Shown: positions 1,715-8,772, numbered from the stretch's first letter. The stretch: DNA of 64,000 nucleotides from a bacterium (GCA_963675755.2 CAXXMD010000003.1:2880001-2944000); one strand, 5' to 3'. Notes: generated by a model from the sequence alone, not told the origin. Numbers and translations are program-made.

Positions 1715-2572
1715 TTATGTTAAAGAAAAGAGAGAGTAATTTGGTGATTTGACGCCTTTAATTGTAACAGGGTAGCGAATAACTTGCTGATCTGTTAATT
1801 TTTGCAATGTTTGCTCAATTACGAGCTTGTTCCATCCAAATAAGCGTATAATGGAGTTTGCATCTGAAACGAGTACGGTTTCAAAGTATTTTTTTAGAAT
1901 TTGAAAATAGGCGTCTTGAATTGAGAGGGTAGAGATGGATTCAAATATTTCCTCAAATCTATTGGTGAACAAGTCCCATAAAAAAGTAAAGGGATCATAA
2001 AACTCGCCTATTTTTAATACAAACATTTTCATTTGCAACTCTGCCATGGCTTTGTCAAAATCTGACCGTCGGTCCGGGTTAGACAATCTGCTGGCAATTT
2101 TCAGATCAGAGGTAATCATGGGATGGGTTTCCATAAGGGCGTCCATAATAGCTTTAGCATTTGCAGACAACCTGCCGGCCATATATTCTGCAATATAGGC
2201 ATTGGGATCGTCAGAATAGCCTTTGGTTTTGTAGAAAAAGGGTAGATATTCTAGCGAGATCATGGTGGGACGGTTTTTAAGAGCTTTGCCGTAATAAATT
2301 TGTTTTCTTGCCGGCAATACATCTTTGGCTGTCCATACCAGACCAATGTTGGGATCGTGCTGCACATGGTGTGGATATTCCGGGTCCCTTTCTCCACATG
2401 CCGCATGCCACAAGCACGGCAGTTCTGATTTGTTGGATTTGAACGCAAAACAAAATCCAACCTTGTTGACAAAGTCTAGCGCATTGTCAATATCAGTTAT
2501 GCGGAGCTCGGGAGTACGATGGTAAATCGCATCCCGTTTTTCTTCAATATATTCAATGTAAAATTCTGTCAT
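1715..2572 (-). CDS. AlkZ/YcaQ-related winged-helix protein, putative DNA crosslink-repair glycosylase
   Basis: FVNKVGFC...LPCLW...W..KD.LP....IYYGK......MIS pattern recalled from AlkZ-related proteins; 4-bp overlap with mutY. Confidence 0.6.
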   Translation of the reverse strand: MTEFYIEYIEEKRDAIYHRTPELRITDIDNALDFVNKVGFCFAFKSNKSELPCLWHAACGERDPEYPHHVQHDPNIGLVWTAKDVLPARKQIYYGKALKNRPTMISLEYLPFFYKTKGYSDDPNAYIAEYMAGRLSANAKAIMDALMETHPMITSDLKIASRLSNPDRRSDFDKAMAELQMKMFVLKIGEFYDPFTFLWDLFTNRFEEIFESISTLSIQDAYFQILKKYFETVLVSDANSIIRLFGWNKLVIEQTLQKLTDQQVIRYPVTIKGVKSPNYSLFSLT

Positions 2573-3645
2573 GATTGTCTTTTCAGCATTTTATCAAGAA
2601 TTTTTCGGTTTGCACGAGGAAAAGCAAAATCGTCAATTGTTTCCAGTGTTACCCATTTCCAATCCGCACAGCCAATGGTTTTGGGGTTACCCGAGAGATA
2701 CTTGCAATTGAATACCTGCATTGTTATGGAAAAATGGGTATAAGCATGTTTAACCGTATCGAATAATTCACCAACCTGTACATCAATATCCAGTTCTTCT
2801 TTGATTTCGCGTGCAGCTGCCTGTTCCGGGGATTCATTTTCTTCTACCTTGCCACCGGGAAATTCCCAGAGACCACCCAACAATCCTTTGTCAGGTCGTT
2901 TTGCGATCAGGATTTTATCGTCATGGTAAATAATTCCAGCGGAAATAAGATGATGCGGCAGAGCCTTTGACGGCTGTTTGACAGGGTATTGCTCCATATC
3001 ACCATGTTTGTTGGCCGCGCAATAATTATTTATGGGGCATAACATGCATTTAGGAGATCGGGGACGGCATACCATTGCACCTAGTTCCATGATGGCCTGA
3101 TTATAATCCCCCGGTCGATTCCAGGGTAAAATCTGCTGTGCCAGGTTTTCCATTTCTTTTTTACCTGCGTTTGATTTGGGATCTATGGATATGCGATATA
3201 CCCTGCACAATACACGATTTACATTTCCATCTACAACTGCTAATTGTTGATTAAAAGCAATACTGAGAATTGCCGCAGCGGTGTACGGACCAATTCCGCT
3301 CAGATTGCGTACAGAATCCGGCTCGTTTGGGAAAATGCCATTGTGATCATTTACTATCTGTTTCGCGGCTTTGTGCAGATTCCGTGCGCGGGCATAGTAA
3401 CCCAATCCTTCCCAGAGTTTGAGGACCTGGTCCTGATTTGCATTCGCCAGATCAAAAACAGTGGGAAAAGCTTCCATGAATCGTAAATAATAAGGTACAA
3501 CGGTTTTGACCTGTGTCTGCTGCAGCATGATTTCGGATACCCATATGGAATACGGATCGCTGGTCTGCCGCCAGGGCAGGTCACGGAATTCATTGTCGTA
3601 CCACTCGAGTAAAGCGGTTTGGATGTGGTGGATATGAGCAGTCAT
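2569..3645 (-). CDS. mutY: A/G-specific adenine DNA glycosylase with C-terminal MutT/Nudix domain
   Basis: WVSEIMLQQTQV, GLGYYARARNL, HhH LSGIGPYTA, VDGNV, FeS motif CRPRSPKCMLCPINNYC; C-terminal GGKVEENESPEQAAAREIKEE. Confidence 0.95.
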   Translation of the reverse strand: MTAHIHHIQTALLEWYDNEFRDLPWRQTSDPYSIWVSEIMLQQTQVKTVVPYYLRFMEAFPTVFDLANANQDQVLKLWEGLGYYARARNLHKAAKQIVNDHNGIFPNEPDSVRNLSGIGPYTAAAILSIAFNQQLAVVDGNVNRVLCRVYRISIDPKSNAGKKEMENLAQQILPWNRPGDYNQAIMELGAMVCRPRSPKCMLCPINNYCAANKHGDMEQYPVKQPSKALPHHLISAGIIYHDDKILIAKRPDKGLLGGLWEFPGGKVEENESPEQAAAREIKEELDIDVQVGELFDTVKHAYTHFSITMQVFNCKYLSGNPKTIGCADWKWVTLETIDDFAFPRANRKILDKMLKRQS

Positions 3646-3850: not shown

Positions 3851-4174
3851 TTACTCAATTGTCCATTTGCGTTGTTTGTTAATCTCTTCTTTTTCGCGGA
3901 ATGCTGCCTCCAGATCAATGTCGTAACGGTTGGCTATGGCAAAGAGATAGATCAGAATGTCAGCCAGCTCGTGCGAGATATCACTAAACCTGGAATTGGT
4001 ATCTATTTTTAGTCCTTCAGATTTTCGAACTGCTTTGAACAGCTCCCCAATCTCTTCTCCCAATAGCAGACATTTATCCCTTGCGGACTGGTCAATGAAT
4101 CCCCGTTCAATCTCAAGCTGGTTAACATATTCCTGTAAATCCTCTAGTGTAGGGTTTTCTAATAAATTTGGCAT
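3851..4174 (-). CDS. MazG-like nucleotide pyrophosphohydrolase (dCTPase/RS21-C6-like)
   Basis: LGEEIGELFKAVRK...ELADILIYL motif. Start moved to ATG 4174 (MPNLLEN, preceded by CAGGAAA) because the longer ORF runs through a terminator. Confidence 0.85.
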   Translation of the reverse strand: MPNLLENPTLEDLQEYVNQLEIERGFIDQSARDKCLLLGEEIGELFKAVRKSEGLKIDTNSRFSDISHELADILIYLFAIANRYDIDLEAAFREKEEINKQRKWTIE

Positions 4175-4286
4175 GAATATTTTCCTGAAAAATAATGTGG
4201 ATTTTATAGGATAGAATAAATAAAATTTTAAAGGTAAATACAACAGGAATGTAGGGAGAATTTGATTTAAATGATTTTTTATTGGG

Positions 4287-4326
4287 AAAAATAAAACACC
4301 CCTCAAAGCCTTGGGTCTTTGAGGGG
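4287..4326 (-). terminator. Intrinsic terminator of the DCCP operon
   Basis: Inverted repeat CCCCTCAAAG (4299-4308) / CTTTGAGGGG (4317-4326) followed on the minus strand by a T-rich tail; a second hairpin TACCCGGC/GCCGGGTA lies at about 4336-4362. Confidence 0.8.
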
Positions 4327-4364
4327 CGCTGATAATACCCGGCACCTGCCATGCGCCGGGTAAT

Positions 4365-5123
4365 TTAAACTTCGCTTCCGGCCTCCTGCGCCAGTAGTGA
4401 AGCTCCTAATGCACCGGCAAATTGAGGAAGGGCTGGTACAATTATTTCACGATGTAATAATTTTTCAAGTAGTACCCGTATACACGGATTTTTGGCAACT
4501 CCACCCTCAAATACAACCGGGCCATCGCTGCCAATCCGGTTCAACATGCTCACTGCCCGTTTGGCTACGGATTTGTGCAATGCCCATGCAATATCATTTC
4601 GGTTATGTCCTTTTGATATGAGAGAGATAACCTCAGATTCCGCAAACACTGTACACATGCTGTTGATATGAATTTCGGTTTGAGATTCGAGCGCGTGTTC
4701 ACCAAATTCCTGAATATTGAATCCCAGGGTAGATGCCATAATCTCTAAAAATTTGCCGGTACCAGCTGCGCAACGGTCATTCATTTCAAATTTTTTGACC
4801 TTGCCGTTTTCGAACAAAGAGATGACTTTGCAGTCCTGACCACCAATATCCAGAATTATAGATGCATTGGGATAAAGGGCCTTGGCCCCCCGTGCATGGG
4901 CTTTGATTTCGGTAACCGTGGGGCTGTCATACTCGATCTCCATGAGATTACGGCCATAACCGGTAGCCATAATACTATCGTATTTCAATCCATCCAGCAA
5001 TTGCTTTGCCTGGTTAAGCGGATCATATCCCGTATCTGCATGATGGTATTCAAGCAGGTTGCTGTTTTCAGTCAATACAACTTTGATTGTTCTTGAGCCG
5101 ATATCAATCCCGGCACACTTCAT
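4365..5123 (-). CDS. ATP-dependent [4Fe-4S] activase/reductase (HgdC/BadFG ASKHA family; DCCP reductase)
   Basis: GIDIGSRTIK, ATGYGR, TEIKAHARGA, LDIGGQD, MNDRCAAGTGKFLE, INSMCTVFAESEVIS, GGVAKN. Confidence 0.92.
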   Translation of the reverse strand: MKCAGIDIGSRTIKVVLTENSNLLEYHHADTGYDPLNQAKQLLDGLKYDSIMATGYGRNLMEIEYDSPTVTEIKAHARGAKALYPNASIILDIGGQDCKVISLFENGKVKKFEMNDRCAAGTGKFLEIMASTLGFNIQEFGEHALESQTEIHINSMCTVFAESEVISLISKGHNRNDIAWALHKSVAKRAVSMLNRIGSDGPVVFEGGVAKNPCIRVLLEKLLHREIIVPALPQFAGALGASLLAQEAGSEV

Positions 5124-5138
5124 ACTGCCAACTCCTAC

Positions 5139-6416
5139 TTATTTTAACTGCTCTACAAATGCTTCTACGCGGGTTTTTAGCTGACCCACATCTTCCATAC
5201 TATAGTCGGTTTCCACACGTAGCACGGGAACACCGGCATCTTCAAGTTTTTTCTCTACCGGAATGGATTCCATGATATAGGGCTGGCAGAACTGCAAACC
5301 ATAATGGATAACTCCATCGGCATTATAGGCTTTGACCATCTCTTGAATGTGCTGTGTTCGTTCCGAATTGGGGGTAAATATTGCACAATCAACCTTGAAA
5401 TAGCGGTCAATGATGGCATCCATCAACTCATCCATTGATTCGCCCGTGGCATCGGTGAGGTTGCGTGTACCGCGTTCACCCACGCACGATTCTTCACCCA
5501 CAATGACTGCACCAGAAGATTCAACAATCCATGGGAACTTCCAGTTGGGTACTGCCATAGGACAACCGGAGATGAGAATTCGTGGTGTATTTTCCGGGAA
5601 AACGCCCTCTTTGTTGGATATACGTTCGGCCAGTTCGTCACAGATTTTGTTGACAGAGGCGGTAAAGCGTTCAGGATTATCATAAAAGAACACCTGGTTG
5701 GCCAGCAGGGCATCGAGACCTGAAATAGGGGCGGGATTTGCTTTTCTCAATGCAGAAAGACGGTGTATTGCACCGCGTTTTTGGTTTACAATTTGAATAC
5801 CTTTTTTCAGGGATTCCAGAGTTACCTCGTGACCGGTCAGTTCCTGGAGTACCTGCAAGAAACGATAATATTCGGCTTTTAACAGCATGCGCCCCTGCTC
5901 GGATTTAACCTGGGGGATGTCCATTACATACAGATTGTCTACAAGGGTATCAAGCGTTTCATAGGCTTTTTTCTTGCCGTCGCAGGTGTTTTCGCCTACA
6001 ATCATATCCGCGCTTTCCAGGTATGGGCACACTTTGCCCAGTTTGAACCCAAAGGAGGATTTGATCAATGAACAGGTATTACGGGGCAGATACTGTTCAA
6101 CACTTTCTGTGGCAAAATCAGCCCCGGAGCATAAACCTACAAGAGAAGCGTTTGCAGCCAGTACCAGTTCTTCCGGAACAAAAACACAATATGAGCCAAT
6201 AATTTTGCGACCCTGGTCTTTTTCATCCAGTAATTCTTTAATACGCAGTCCATGCACTTCGCTCATAACAAAATCGAAATATTGCATGCCTTGTGGACGG
6301 TTTTTCTGAGAAAGGTAAATATCCCCATAACCCTGGCCCAGTACTTCAAGCAGTGCATCGTGGGCACCCAGGTCCAGTCCGAGATCGGACCACATTTGCT
6401 GATAATTTTCAGACAT
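5139..6416 (-). CDS. Double-cubane-cluster protein (DCCP; 2-hydroxyacyl-CoA dehydratase/HGD-D family anaerobic reductase)
   Basis: Colinear with the recalled Carboxydothermus DCCP: W..L..DL..HD, YFD.V....HG.R, YCVFVPEE, GLC, PRNTC.LIKS, CPY, ENTCDGKKK, EESCVGER, DCAIFTPN, QFCQPY, GQLKTRVEAF. GGAGGA (6427-6422) favours ATG 6416. Confidence 0.88.
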   Translation of the reverse strand: MSENYQQMWSDLGLDLGAHDALLEVLGQGYGDIYLSQKNRPQGMQYFDFVMSEVHGLRIKELLDEKDQGRKIIGSYCVFVPEELVLAANASLVGLCSGADFATESVEQYLPRNTCSLIKSSFGFKLGKVCPYLESADMIVGENTCDGKKKAYETLDTLVDNLYVMDIPQVKSEQGRMLLKAEYYRFLQVLQELTGHEVTLESLKKGIQIVNQKRGAIHRLSALRKANPAPISGLDALLANQVFFYDNPERFTASVNKICDELAERISNKEGVFPENTPRILISGCPMAVPNWKFPWIVESSGAVIVGEESCVGERGTRNLTDATGESMDELMDAIIDRYFKVDCAIFTPNSERTQHIQEMVKAYNADGVIHYGLQFCQPYIMESIPVEKKLEDAGVPVLRVETDYSMEDVGQLKTRVEAFVEQLK

Positions 6417-6420
6417 GTTC

Positions 6421-6481
6421 ATCCTCCAAATGGTGTTGATCGCTTACATCCCCACGCGAACACCTTTATTATTGGAAGGAC
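6421..6481 (-). promoter_or_regulatory. Leader stem-loop sequestering the DCCP Shine-Dalgarno sequence
   Basis: mRNA GUCCUUCCAA (6481-6472) can pair with UUGGAGGAU (6429-6421); inner helices GGUGUU/AACACC and CGC/GCG. Confidence 0.55.
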
Positions 6482-6496
6482 AAACGCACAGGAACG

Positions 6497-6574
6497 TTAC
6501 GAAAATAAACTGAGAAAAGAGCTGACCAGCCCTTTGATCGGTTGTCAATTACATTGATAAAAAAGTAATTTCAT
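6497..6574 (-). CDS. Putative 25-aa selenocysteine-containing leader peptide MKLLFYQCNUQPIKGLVSSFLSLFS
   Basis: ATG 6574 preceded by GGAAAG; in-frame TGA at 6547-6545 in a C-x-U context; frame stays open to TAA 6499-6497; SECIS-like hairpin immediately downstream of the TGA. Confidence 0.55.
6516..6535 (-). promoter_or_regulatory. Bacterial SECIS-like hairpin
   Basis: AAAGGGCU-GGUC-AGCUCUUU: 8-bp stem with one G-U pair, starting 9 nt after UGA. The loop G is the 18th nt after UGA; the GGUC loop core matches the E. coli fdhF SECIS. Confidence 0.6.
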
Positions 6575-6833
6575 AACGCTTTCCGTTTTTCAGAACGTTG
6601 TTGAATAAATTACAGTAAAATTTTTGCATGGAATCTATATTTTTTACAATTAATGCATTTTTTGCACAATATGCAAGTGGAATGTGCTGATTTGCTATGC
6701 AATTTATATTAAATGTATGTTAACAATTGTAAAATGCTCTATGCTGGACGTTATAACCGGGGATATGTCTGTCGCTTTTCATGCCAGCGTAACTAATCGT
6801 TTGTAGCGGACAAAGGGATATGTTTTGTTCTAC

Positions 6834-6870
6834 AAAAAAACCTCCCAAAGCAAATTGCTATGGGAGGTTT
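6834..6870 (-). terminator. Intrinsic terminator after the GHMP kinase operon
   Basis: AAACCTCCCA...TGGGAGGTTT inverted repeat with an A7 run on the plus strand (U-tract on minus). Confidence 0.8.
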
Positions 6871-6913
6871 AAAATCTTATCTTAATAATACTATGTATCC
6901 TAATTCAGACAGT

Positions 6914-7906
6914 CTAGATCTGCGGTTTAATGACCACCGCGCCGATTGTTGCCAATTCTTTTTTCAGTTTTTCAAACATCTGTGGTCCGTCATAGGTACC
7001 CACAATGGCGCCACCACTGCCAGAGAATTTGGCACTGGCCCCAACGGATCGGGCATGTTCTACCATTTCCAGATTCATACGCGAGATGGGGAAAATCTCT
7101 TTACGTTTGTCAAAATTCTGGTTCATAATCTTACCCAGTTTGTCCGGTTCATGGTTGAGCAGGCAATCGCGTGCCTGTTCTGCCATTTCCGCAAAATACT
7201 TCATGGCATCAATTACTTTTTGATCACCAGCCATAAAACGTCCGCGCAGGTTGCCATGTGCAATGCCCGAGATTTCAGCCAGATCGCTGATATATGCCAG
7301 ATAGATAGGCGGAAGCATATTCGGATCGATGTTTTCGTAATTACCGTAACCCTGACTGTCTATCAGTTTTTTATCAAAATCCATGTAAACCAGGTTTTCG
7401 TAAACCTGAACTACGCGATCCTGCAGACCTGCCGAGATTTGCAGTTCGTCTGTTTCTACACTAAGAATAAGGTTGGGAATCAGCGGTTTGGGTATTTCAA
7501 TGCCGTAAAATGTCATTAACGCGCGTATGGTTGCGGTTACAATTGCACTTGATCCGGCAAGTCCCACCTGCACAGGTATGTTTGAGTCGTAGCGGACGGT
7601 AAAATTCTTGTCTGCCAGAACAATACCTTTGCTCTTGCAGTACTCGAAAAACTTTTTAGCCGCTGCTTTGATGAGGCGAATACCGCCGTAATACCCATGA
7701 CGTTGTACGTCTTTGACCAGGTGTTCCAGGTTTTCAAAATATGAATGGTCCCGCTGATTCGGAATGATCTCTATGTCCGGTGTTTCATACAGGGTTACTT
7801 CGGCGAAAAAATCTTTAAATGTTACAGACAGTGTCTTGCCAAAGTATCCGTCTGAAGGATTCCCCGCAAGTCCTGCACGTGTGTATGCTTTTGTTCTTAC
7901 TATCAT
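6914..7906 (-). CDS. GHMP-family sugar kinase, glucuronokinase-like
   Basis: RAGLAGNPSDGYFGKT, IPVQVGLAGSSA, AGLQDRVVQVYE, AKFSGSGGA. Start set at ATG 7906 after AGAGGAA. Confidence 0.8.
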   Translation of the reverse strand: MIVRTKAYTRAGLAGNPSDGYFGKTLSVTFKDFFAEVTLYETPDIEIIPNQRDHSYFENLEHLVKDVQRHGYYGGIRLIKAAAKKFFEYCKSKGIVLADKNFTVRYDSNIPVQVGLAGSSAIVTATIRALMTFYGIEIPKPLIPNLILSVETDELQISAGLQDRVVQVYENLVYMDFDKKLIDSQGYGNYENIDPNMLPPIYLAYISDLAEISGIAHGNLRGRFMAGDQKVIDAMKYFAEMAEQARDCLLNHEPDKLGKIMNQNFDKRKEIFPISRMNLEMVEHARSVGASAKFSGSGGAIVGTYDGPQMFEKLKKELATIGAVVIKPQI

Positions 7907-7926
7907 ATGTTCCTCTCTAATTTTTA

Positions 7927-8772
7927 TTAGAGTTTGGATTGTATCCAATCCCACAATATATCGAGATTTTGCTTCTTTTCAACTTCGTTAAACAATTCAT
8001 GATTTGAAATCGGACAAATATACTGCTTTTTATCCTCAGTTCCAAATAAAGAAAACATTTTTGTGGCGTCATCAATGTTGATGATATTATCATTTTCGCC
8101 CAACATTAATAATATAGGGATATTTACCTGATTTGCGTTTTTATGCACATCCTCAATTACTTCCAGCATGGATAAAAAGAACGAAACGCTTGCCATATCA
8201 TGAACCAGTTCATCTTTTTTGTATTTTTCTACTTCATTGCGATCATGTGAGAGATCGTCAGGATTAATTCCGTTGGGCATGGTAAAAGAGGGAGCGATGT
8301 GGTTCAGCATTTTTGCAAGTGTGTGTTTCCATGCCGGAACCGGTACTTTGATACCAAAAGCAGGAGATGAAAACACCACTCCATTTAATAGATTGTCAGG
8401 GTATTGTAATAAAAAATCCATGGCAATTAGCCCACCCAGACTGTGTCCCAACAATATAGAAGGTTTGTCGTCCCATTTATCCCTTATATATCCGCACATG
8501 GTTTTCATGTCTCTGGCGTATTCATGGAAATGTTTTACATGACCCCGTTTACCACCGGATTTCCCATGGCCCTGGTGATCAAGCGCATACACCGCCATAC
8601 CTTTTGGCAATACAAAATCCAGTATATTGCGGTATCGCCCGGAATGCTCACCAATTCCATGAGCAATAATCAGGTTGCCAATGTGCTCTGTTTCAGGCAG
8701 CCAATATTGATAAAATATCTCAATACCGTCCTGGTTGAGAAATTCCCCGGTAGTATGATTTCTTGTTTTCAT
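7927..8772 (-). CDS. Alpha/beta hydrolase, lysophospholipase/monoglyceride lipase family
   Basis: HGIGEHSGRY, DHQGHGKS, nucleophile elbow GHSLGG, C-terminal HELFNE. Confidence 0.9.
   Translation of the reverse strand: MKTRNHTTGEFLNQDGIEIFYQYWLPETEHIGNLIIAHGIGEHSGRYRNILDFVLPKGMAVYALDHQGHGKSGGKRGHVKHFHEYARDMKTMCGYIRDKWDDKPSILLGHSLGGLIAMDFLLQYPDNLLNGVVFSSPAFGIKVPVPAWKHTLAKMLNHIAPSFTMPNGINPDDLSHDRNEVEKYKKDELVHDMASVSFFLSMLEVIEDVHKNANQVNIPILLMLGENDNIINIDDATKMFSLFGTEDKKQYICPISNHELFNEVEKKQNLDILWDWIQSKL

Follow-up and report, generated by a model that had tools for sequence, protein, structure and literature searches.

A conserved leader with a UGA codon and a SECIS-like hairpin as candidate selenocysteine-dependent attenuator of a double-cubane reductase operon

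What does a short open reading frame (ORF) interrupted by an in-frame UGA codon do in front of the gene of a double-cubane [Fe8S9] reductase, a type of enzyme whose physiological substrate is, to our knowledge, not known? The question is raised by a stretch of bacterial DNA of 64,000 nucleotides (GCA_963675755.2 CAXXMD010000003.1:2880001-2944000; the whole stretch is called the window below, and positions are counted from its first letter). On its minus strand, the window codes at 4365-6416 for a double-cubane reductase (6416/6422-5139) and an ATP-dependent activase (5123-4365). The reductase reached 469 bits with NF040772 (cut-off 350) and matched PF06050, and the activase reached 229 bits with TIGR00241 and matched PF01869. 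An earlier reading of the sequence, here called the original prediction, took the short ORF for a hidden selenopeptide with a C-x-U motif, acting either as a selenium-sensing leader or as a small partner of the enzyme's cluster in redox or chalcogen chemistry. We consider it probable, on balance, that the 5′ leader of the two genes, which are the presumed targets of regulation, is a ribosome-mediated translational attenuator in which the decoding of selenocysteine (Sec) serves as the sensor.

The UGA codon and the SECIS-like hairpin

The leader ORF extends from 6574 to 6497 on the minus strand, within a 490-nucleotide (nt) intergenic region that holds the reductase leader of ~170 nt. It consists of 25 sense codons and a stop (ATG AAA TTA CTT TTT TAT CAA TGT AAT TGA CAA CCG ATC AAA GGG CTG GTC AGC TCT TTT CTC AGT TTA TTT TCG TAA), with the ATG at 6574-6572, the in-frame TGA at 6547-6545 and the TAA stop at 6499-6497, and its translation is MKLLFYQCN-U-QPIKGLVSSFLSLFS followed by the stop. 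The sequence GGAAAG (6584-6579) forms a weak Shine-Dalgarno (SD)-like element at positions -10 to -5 from the leader ATG, which coincides with the SD G peak of the genome (-9/-10); it also lies within the 5′ strand of the helix P1 described below. The UGA, a candidate Sec codon, is part of a UUGA that is invariant in our alignment (A1) and whose flanks are not conserved. Downstream of it, RNAfold predicts a hairpin at 6535-6516 (AAAGGGCU/GGUC/AGCUCUUU) that resembles a Sec insertion sequence (SECIS). Its stem of 8 base pairs (bp; 6535-6528 with 6523-6516) carries a GGUC loop (6527-6524) and is prolonged by a lower stem (6543-6538 with 6513-6508). The stem starts 9 nt, and the loop 17 nt, past the TGA. 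The ORF, its GGAAAG and the position of the hairpin are all as originally described.

The geometry of this hairpin was compared with that of real SECIS elements. A bacterial SECIS is a stem-loop 3′ of a UGA whose apical loop contains a G (GU), and published descriptors allow 16-37 nt between the UGA and the loop. In E. coli fdhF, the TGA is followed after 18 nt by a GGTC loop, so that the likeness to fdhF at nearly the same distance, which had been claimed before, holds. A standard from the phylum itself is given by the Prx selenoprotein, a peroxiredoxin (FYPGDFTFV-U-ATE), encoded outside the window in the same genome (G000:C3:1158744-1159454; L113:145-858), with Sec at the peroxidatic position. 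An in-frame TGA was present in all 62 Prx matches, which came from 56 of the 167 genomes of the phylum. In each of the 30 loci fetched, the tetraloop is located exactly 17 nt past the TGA (GGTC in 22, AGTT in 8), and in 28 of them it is borne by a stem of 4-7 bp. The arms of this stem read UCAGC/GCUGA or UCGGC/GCCGA, and the A-C combination was never seen, which corresponds to compensating changes at the wobble position. Since the leader hairpin has the same spacing and loop as the Prx SECIS, it matches the phylum's own SECIS form. Judged by its sequence, it has SECIS geometry and is a putative site of SelB binding and Sec insertion.

The genome also contains the Sec machinery on which the original prediction depended: selA (493 bits), selB (371 bits), selD (377 bits, with one in-frame TGA) and tRNA-Sec (68 bits) were all found. 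Furthermore, selA is present in 41 of the 43 genomes of the order, and selB in four of the five other genomes that carry the leader, the fifth (G091) being 74% complete. The selD gene is itself a selenoprotein gene (KCAG-U-ASKL; G000:C3:1425405-1426334; L010, L152). A screen of the genome for selenoproteins by coding score gave 234 noisy candidates, among which Prx alone was convincing; the strict N17-RGTY descriptor likewise recovered Prx alone among coding-like sites and is not a general selenoprotein finder here. We also noticed a possible HesB/IscA-like selenoprotein (GFG-U-GGPS; G000:C3:571888-572298, minus strand; L151:389-799), for which the Pfam Fe-S_biosyn match reached only E = 0.089; it has a second TGA near the C-terminus after SSC, and its downstream hairpin is unlike the N17-GGUC form. 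Fdh-alpha, GRDA and GRDB were not found in G000, and the GRDA and GRDB controls matched nowhere either.

A single TGA-N17-RGTY hairpin in one genome is at chance level. Genome-wide, 55 such sites have a stem of 4 bp or more, three of them with 8 bp, and 20 sites combine a GGTC loop and a stem of 6 bp or more with a spacing of 14-21 nt. These numbers speak for an explanation that we regard as improbable, namely that the leader is a structured cis-regulatory RNA unrelated to Sec (a riboswitch or a protein-binding RNA), in which UUGA and GGUC would be needed for a different ligand or for a tertiary contact and the likeness to a SECIS would be coincidental. The significance of the leader comes from its conservation: six of six homologous leaders from four lineages share the TGA, its 17-nt spacing and the loop. 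An RNA unrelated to Sec would need a triple coincidence, of the spacing, the loop and an enzyme family tied to selenium.

Orthologs of the reductase (E ≤1e-150) were found in 9 of the 167 genomes of the phylum, and six of the nine have a homologous leader. These six represent four lineages: G000 with G001, G004, G022 with G091, and G098. In all six, UUGA is followed by exactly 17 nt of non-conserved sequence and then by GGUC, on stems of 7-8 bp, and the distance from the hairpin to the reductase SD is 94-99 nt. The third-codon identity of the reductase genes between the four lineages is 42-46%, which corresponds to saturation, so that the features shared by the leaders have been kept by selection. 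Between G000 and G001, the 5′ part of the leader (domain I, see below) is identical at 94 of 94 positions, compared with 76% identity at third codon positions in the adjacent gene. Contigs of four runs contained the G001-like variant only, with no change at 6479-6585, and add nothing beyond G001. The conservation of ORF, UGA and covarying hairpin upstream of the homologs, by which the idea was to be judged, is therefore found in six genomes of four lineages.

The leader is restricted to these genomes in our searches. It was missing upstream of the three more distant orthologs (family f12, 70% identity) and at 79 of 80 orthologous loci of other phyla, mostly Desulfobacterota. A covariance model of domain I (R1), run over 84 loci, gave two matches and a 19-bit chance match, in agreement with the absence of the leader elsewhere. 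On G000, R1 gave one real match and a 25-bit chance match, and of 151 genomes of the phylum it found five, each of which had served as a training row. No extra copies of the leader and no other regulated genes were thus found with R1, and there is one copy per genome. A metagenome scan, with a pattern limited to the SD-proximal part to keep the test of UGA and hairpin unbiased, returned one stretch, an unrelated chance match. The f12 orthologs (L110, L111, L112) instead have, ~300 nt upstream, an AT-rich region in which GAAATTTGA-like words are repeated many times, suggestive of another type of control region.

We then considered whether the leader frame would be read. All six leaders have an in-frame ATG before the conserved TGA, after 9, 11, 10 and 11 codons in the four lineages. 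The corresponding distances of 27, 33, 30 and 33 nt indicate that the changes in length kept the frame; in G004, the ATG stands one codon further on than in the other leaders and is still in frame. Past the conserved TGA, the frame remains open for 15-20 codons in all leaders. With shuffled flanks, an in-frame ATG together with 15 or more open codons past the TGA arose in 1.7-5.7% of the trials per lineage. In five of the six leaders, AGGA or GGA precedes the leader ATG at the distance of the SD peak. The peptide itself is not conserved on either side of the UGA, and the peptides differ throughout except at this codon. It follows that the frame, if read, belongs to a regulatory leader and not to a functional peptide.

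This bears on the idea that the ORF encodes a stand-alone selenopeptide of 25-32 residues that would serve the [Fe8S9] enzyme as a redox or chalcogen partner. An ORF with a UGA and a SECIS-like hairpin is indeed present, and the Cys of G000 two codons before the UGA, replaced by TGA in G022 and G091, recalls a Cys/Sec exchange. However, no residue besides the UGA is conserved over the four lineages. The Cys codon of the C-x-U motif is found in G000 and G001 only, the aligned codon being AAC (Asn) in G004 and ATT (Ile) in G098, so that the motif does not hold as a feature of the leader. Moreover, all four codons that differ between G022 and G091 are non-synonymous, and the C-terminal parts vary in length and sequence and extend into the regulatory helices. 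A functional selenopeptide is thus disfavoured and appears very improbable, and with it the role as enzyme partner that had been envisaged.

Two alternative folds around the reductase start

The folds were derived from RNAalifold and from single-sequence minimum free energy predictions, the structure being drawn from the same six rows that were used to score covariation. Over the whole leader, 83.3% of the cells are paired, as compared to 39-44% in slid controls, and 10 pairs changed on both sides, with a covariation score reached by none of 500 shuffles. In the SECIS-like stem, three of seven pairs changed on both sides and 90.5% of the cells are paired around the invariant GGUC loop. This stem lies inside domain I (6586-6488), which is closed by the helix P1. 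The 5′ strand of P1 (6586-6571) contains the leader SD and AUG, and its 3′ strand (6502-6488) contains the leader stop; P1 thus joins the start of the leader to its end, with 79.5% of the cells paired. The interior of domain I contains long, non-conserved A/U-rich stretches and almost no conserved junction letters other than UUGA.

Downstream of domain I, two sets of helices compete for the region around the reductase start. The sequestor consists of P3 and of the P4 hairpin (6464-6432), its apical part. In P3, the anti-SD strand (6485-6472) pairs with the region of the reductase SD and start (6427-6414), so that both the GGAGGA at 6427-6422 and the likely start ATG at 6416-6414 are paired in the minimum-energy fold. 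P3 carries changes on both strands, UUUGUCCU with AGGAUGAA in G000 and G001 being replaced by UUAAUCCU with AGGAUUAA in the other lineages. The sequestor is the minimum-energy fold in six of six leaders, and it lies 6-14 kcal/mol below the best SD-free fold in each. If the 3′ half is omitted, an anti-sequestor (P5/P6) folds in all six leaders; it is made of the 5′ half of the sequestor, including the 5′ strand of P4, and of a short strand just past domain I. This short strand, the P5 5′ strand (UGUGCG, 6490-6485), is located 9-14 nt past the leader stop, close enough to be reached by a ribosome that terminates there. The predicted sequestor and anti-sequestor would be mutually exclusive helices, hiding or freeing the reductase SD.

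Riboswitch-like leaders typically have such a conserved fold of two domains, one of them a platform that sequesters the SD, which speaks for a structured leader unrelated to Sec. Against that explanation, the loops of domain I are A/U-rich and not conserved, with few conserved junction letters, which is unlike an aptamer. The Rfam 15 scan of the region 5000-8000 of the window gave no family match at E ≤10, the best overlapping entry being STnc630 with 19.5 bits (gathering threshold 55, E = 1.9).

The position of the leader stop connects the ORF with these helices. It occurs at two positions of the alignment, separated by 15 nt. Four leaders (G000, G001, G022 and G091) have it in the 3′ strand of P1, 9-14 nt ahead of the P5 5′ strand; the other two (G004 and G098) have it just past the P5 5′ strand and inside the anti-SD. 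On the predicted folds, a ribosome at either position would cover the P5 5′ strand, and we infer that it masks it.

These data lead us to propose the following sequence of events. A ribosome would start the leader ORF at the AUG held in P1 and reach the UGA after 9-11 codons. The hairpin 17 nt past the UGA would act as SECIS and recruit SelB-GTP-Sec-tRNA(Sec). If Sec is delivered, the ribosome would run on to the leader stop, which in every lineage lies within one footprint of the P5 5′ strand; with this strand masked, the P3 + P4 sequestor would form and bury the reductase SD and start. If Sec-tRNA or SelB is scarce, a release factor would end the leader at the UGA, ~50 nt upstream, P5/P6 would form first, and the reductase SD would stay open. 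The leader role envisaged by the original prediction, that of a selenium sensor, fits this downstream SD-sequestering switch.

Within the attenuator model, the sense of the switch is a matter of preference. We somewhat favour an operon that would be switched on by a shortage of Sec, comparable to the way in which leader peptides switch on operons of amino-acid biosynthesis. A switch of the reverse sense, with the SD opened by read-through, would be only moderately less probable within the same model. In G004 and G098, whose stop is inside the anti-SD, a steric mechanism would fit: the ribosome that terminates there would open this strand. We prefer the masking of the anti-sequestor because in G000, G022 and G091 the leader stops ~12 nt before the anti-SD.

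An alternative that keeps selenium as the signal dispenses with the translation of the leader. SelB, loaded with GTP and Sec-tRNA, would bind the hairpin, shift the balance of the folds and so set the translation of the reductase, the ORF being incidental. The hairpin has SECIS geometry and the GGUC loop. The TGA that G022 and G091 carry in addition and the lack of an SD-like element in G098, both discussed below, would be harmless to such a mechanism. There is also a precedent: in the 5′ untranslated region of E. coli selAB, a SECIS-like element located 3 nt from the SD reportedly mediates translational repression by SelB (10.64898/2026.03.03.709296). Like that operator, the leader has a SECIS-type hairpin in the 5′ region that would couple Sec-tRNA/SelB status to downstream translation. 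Unlike it, the hairpin here is part of a short ORF, follows an invariant UGA at 17 nt and precedes the SD by 94-99 nt, and the genes are those of the double-cubane reductase and its activase instead of selA and selB. The leader is thus not a selAB-type operator, since the SD distance, the conserved UGA and the frame do not fit. Since SelB needs no more than the apical hairpin for binding, such binding alone would leave unexplained why the UGA is invariant at exactly 17 nt, why an AUG is in frame and why the changes in length keep the frame, and the pairing of leader start with leader stop in P1 suggests that ribosome traffic matters. We therefore give SelB action without leader translation the place of a minor possibility.

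Several observations weigh against the attenuator model. The leader was found in four lineages only. The stop inside the anti-SD in G004 and G098 fits the opposite logic, read-through opening the SD, equally well. G098 has no SD-like element before the leader ATG, and the leader AUG could have been kept for its pairing in P1 instead of for initiation. In G022 and G091, a second in-frame TGA stands two codons ahead of the conserved one (ACA TGA AAT TGA); at its distance of 23 nt to the loop, this extra TGA might fail to be decoded as Sec, and the leader would then end early. No leader has a Cys codon at the position of the UGA (all six have TGA, and no further homologs were found); in a regulatory leader, such a codon is not expected. 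In P1, 8 of 13 pairs depart only by unpaired cells, much of the helix being invariant or broken. Because the anti-sequestor falls far behind the sequestor in stability, the 'on' state must be kinetic. Finally, the hairpins downstream of the selD TGA differ from the N17-GGUC form, which makes the latter one SECIS form of this genome and not the sole one.

Relation to known attenuators and selenium switches

Leader-peptide attenuation is textbook knowledge, and the SECIS is established as a recoding signal and, in the case of E. coli selAB, also as an operator bound by SelB. In the literature searched, no Sec-codon leader and no SECIS-based attenuation was described. The attenuator model shares several traits with the amino-acid attenuators of the trp, his and leu type. 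In both cases there is a short ORF in which the codon of the sensed amino acid is the sole conserved coding feature, the peptide being otherwise variable. The position of the stop lets the terminating ribosome mask one strand of mutually exclusive helices, and the output follows the progress of the ribosome. The proposed differences concern the sensor and the consequence of its failure: the classical systems sense an ordinary charged tRNA, whereas here the SelB/Sec-tRNA/SECIS recoding of a stop codon would be sensed, and failure would result in release-factor termination instead of stalling. The output would also differ, being SD sequestration here and an intrinsic terminator there. Relatives of the leader-peptide attenuators include the cysteine-responsive short ORFs with poly-Cys stretches that are reported from mycobacteria (10.1101/834739).

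With the SECIS of selenoprotein genes (fdhF, and Prx in the phylum), the leader has in common the UGA, the spacing of 17-18 nt, the GGUC tetraloop, the short covarying stem and the Sec machinery in the genome. It differs from them in that the hairpin belongs to a non-conserved ORF of 26-33 codons and not to an enzyme, that no Cys homologs are known, and that a second UGA occurs 6 nt upstream in two genomes. For fdhF(Sec) of Treponema primitia, a translation-coupled control of transcription by selenium is reported (PMC3892789). There, as proposed here, selenium would be read by the passage of a ribosome over a Sec UGA with its SECIS, and this passage decides on downstream expression. In Treponema primitia, the regulated gene is the selenoprotein gene that itself contains the UGA, and the effect reportedly concerns transcription elongation; here, by contrast, the ORF would be a dedicated leader and the target gene has no UGA, the reductase gene itself being free of internal stops.

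Downstream genes and their link to selenium

The activase gene directly follows the reductase gene in G000, G001, G004, G098 and the f12 genomes; no activase was found in the downstream sequence covered for G022 (L023, 546 nt) and G091 (L108, 1500 nt). Past the activase, the same strand (minus) carries genes of a MazG-like pyrophosphohydrolase (3851-4345) and of a MutY-type glycosylase with a NUDIX domain (2569-3645), and a MazG-like gene also follows the activase in G001.

Upstream of the leader lies a GHMP-kinase-like gene (7954-6914, minus strand). The terminator scan gave no terminator-like site at 6300-7000. By eye, a GC-rich hairpin followed by a T run was noticed at ~6868-6833 on the minus strand, directly past the GHMP-kinase-like gene; the terminator consensus scan did not list it. 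This hairpin is probably the terminator of that gene, which would make the leader and the reductase a separate transcription unit. We also considered the conserved TTGA as a sigma-70 -35 box and rejected it: none of the lineages has a -10-like hexamer 16-18 nt further on, and the TTGA is absent from the output of the promoter scan. When the upstream sequences were read by eye, no consistent -35/-10 pair was seen across the lineages. On the plus strand, an ORF of 101 codons (6252-6557) lies antisense to the leader and to the beginning of the reductase gene. Conserved RNA and coding sequence of the opposite strand fall within its range, and the ORF is in all likelihood spurious.

The reductase family can be tied to selenium by two further lines of evidence. 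In Desulfobacterota loci, selB is found directly upstream of reductase orthologs, the SelB C-terminal motif being present in 5 of 80 loci and the NCBIfam selB model (TIGR00475) exceeding its cut-off at L084 and L098. The coordinates of selB and of the reductase ortholog are 549-2504 and 2501-3778 in L084, and 455-2491 and 2504-3781 in L098; the same arrangement was seen in L086, L091 and L100, and by eye in L097. In these loci, the end of selB coincides with the start of the reductase ortholog or falls within 12 nt of it, and in L098 the activase comes next. The selB-reductase pairs look like operons. Phylogenetic profiling reported in a 2022 preprint (10.1101/2022.07.06.499078) placed 955 of 970 NF040772 proteins in assemblies containing SelD, and the same preprint discusses a role of double-cubane proteins in selenium chemistry. 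Both the co-occurrence with SelD and the adjacency to selB fit an enzyme tied to Sec metabolism. As to the novelty claimed for the pairing of the selenopeptide ORF with the double-cubane reductase, the link between double-cubane proteins and selenium was already drawn in that preprint; the word 'leader' occurs nowhere in it.

If the operon were on at Sec shortage, the reductase would be an enzyme of selenium supply. We put forward, tentatively and as a rather speculative extension, that the leader may be the first natural Sec-sensing attenuator that is on at Sec shortage, and that the double-cubane reductases may be selenium-supply enzymes, providing for example selenide for SelD. The anatomy of the leader, as read from the sequences of four lineages, appears unusually coherent and points to a function that can be tested for an enigmatic family of enzymes. 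If the attenuator model is true, bacteria would read their selenium status through the UGA and SECIS of a leader ORF, which would be a new regulatory use of recoding, and the compact element of ~170 nt may be a natural selenium-responsive expression switch. Together with the selB-reductase pairs, the leader would then also provide regulatory evidence for the link between double-cubane proteins and selenium that is independent of the co-occurrence statistics from which this link was drawn, and with it a testable hypothesis for the function of the reductase.

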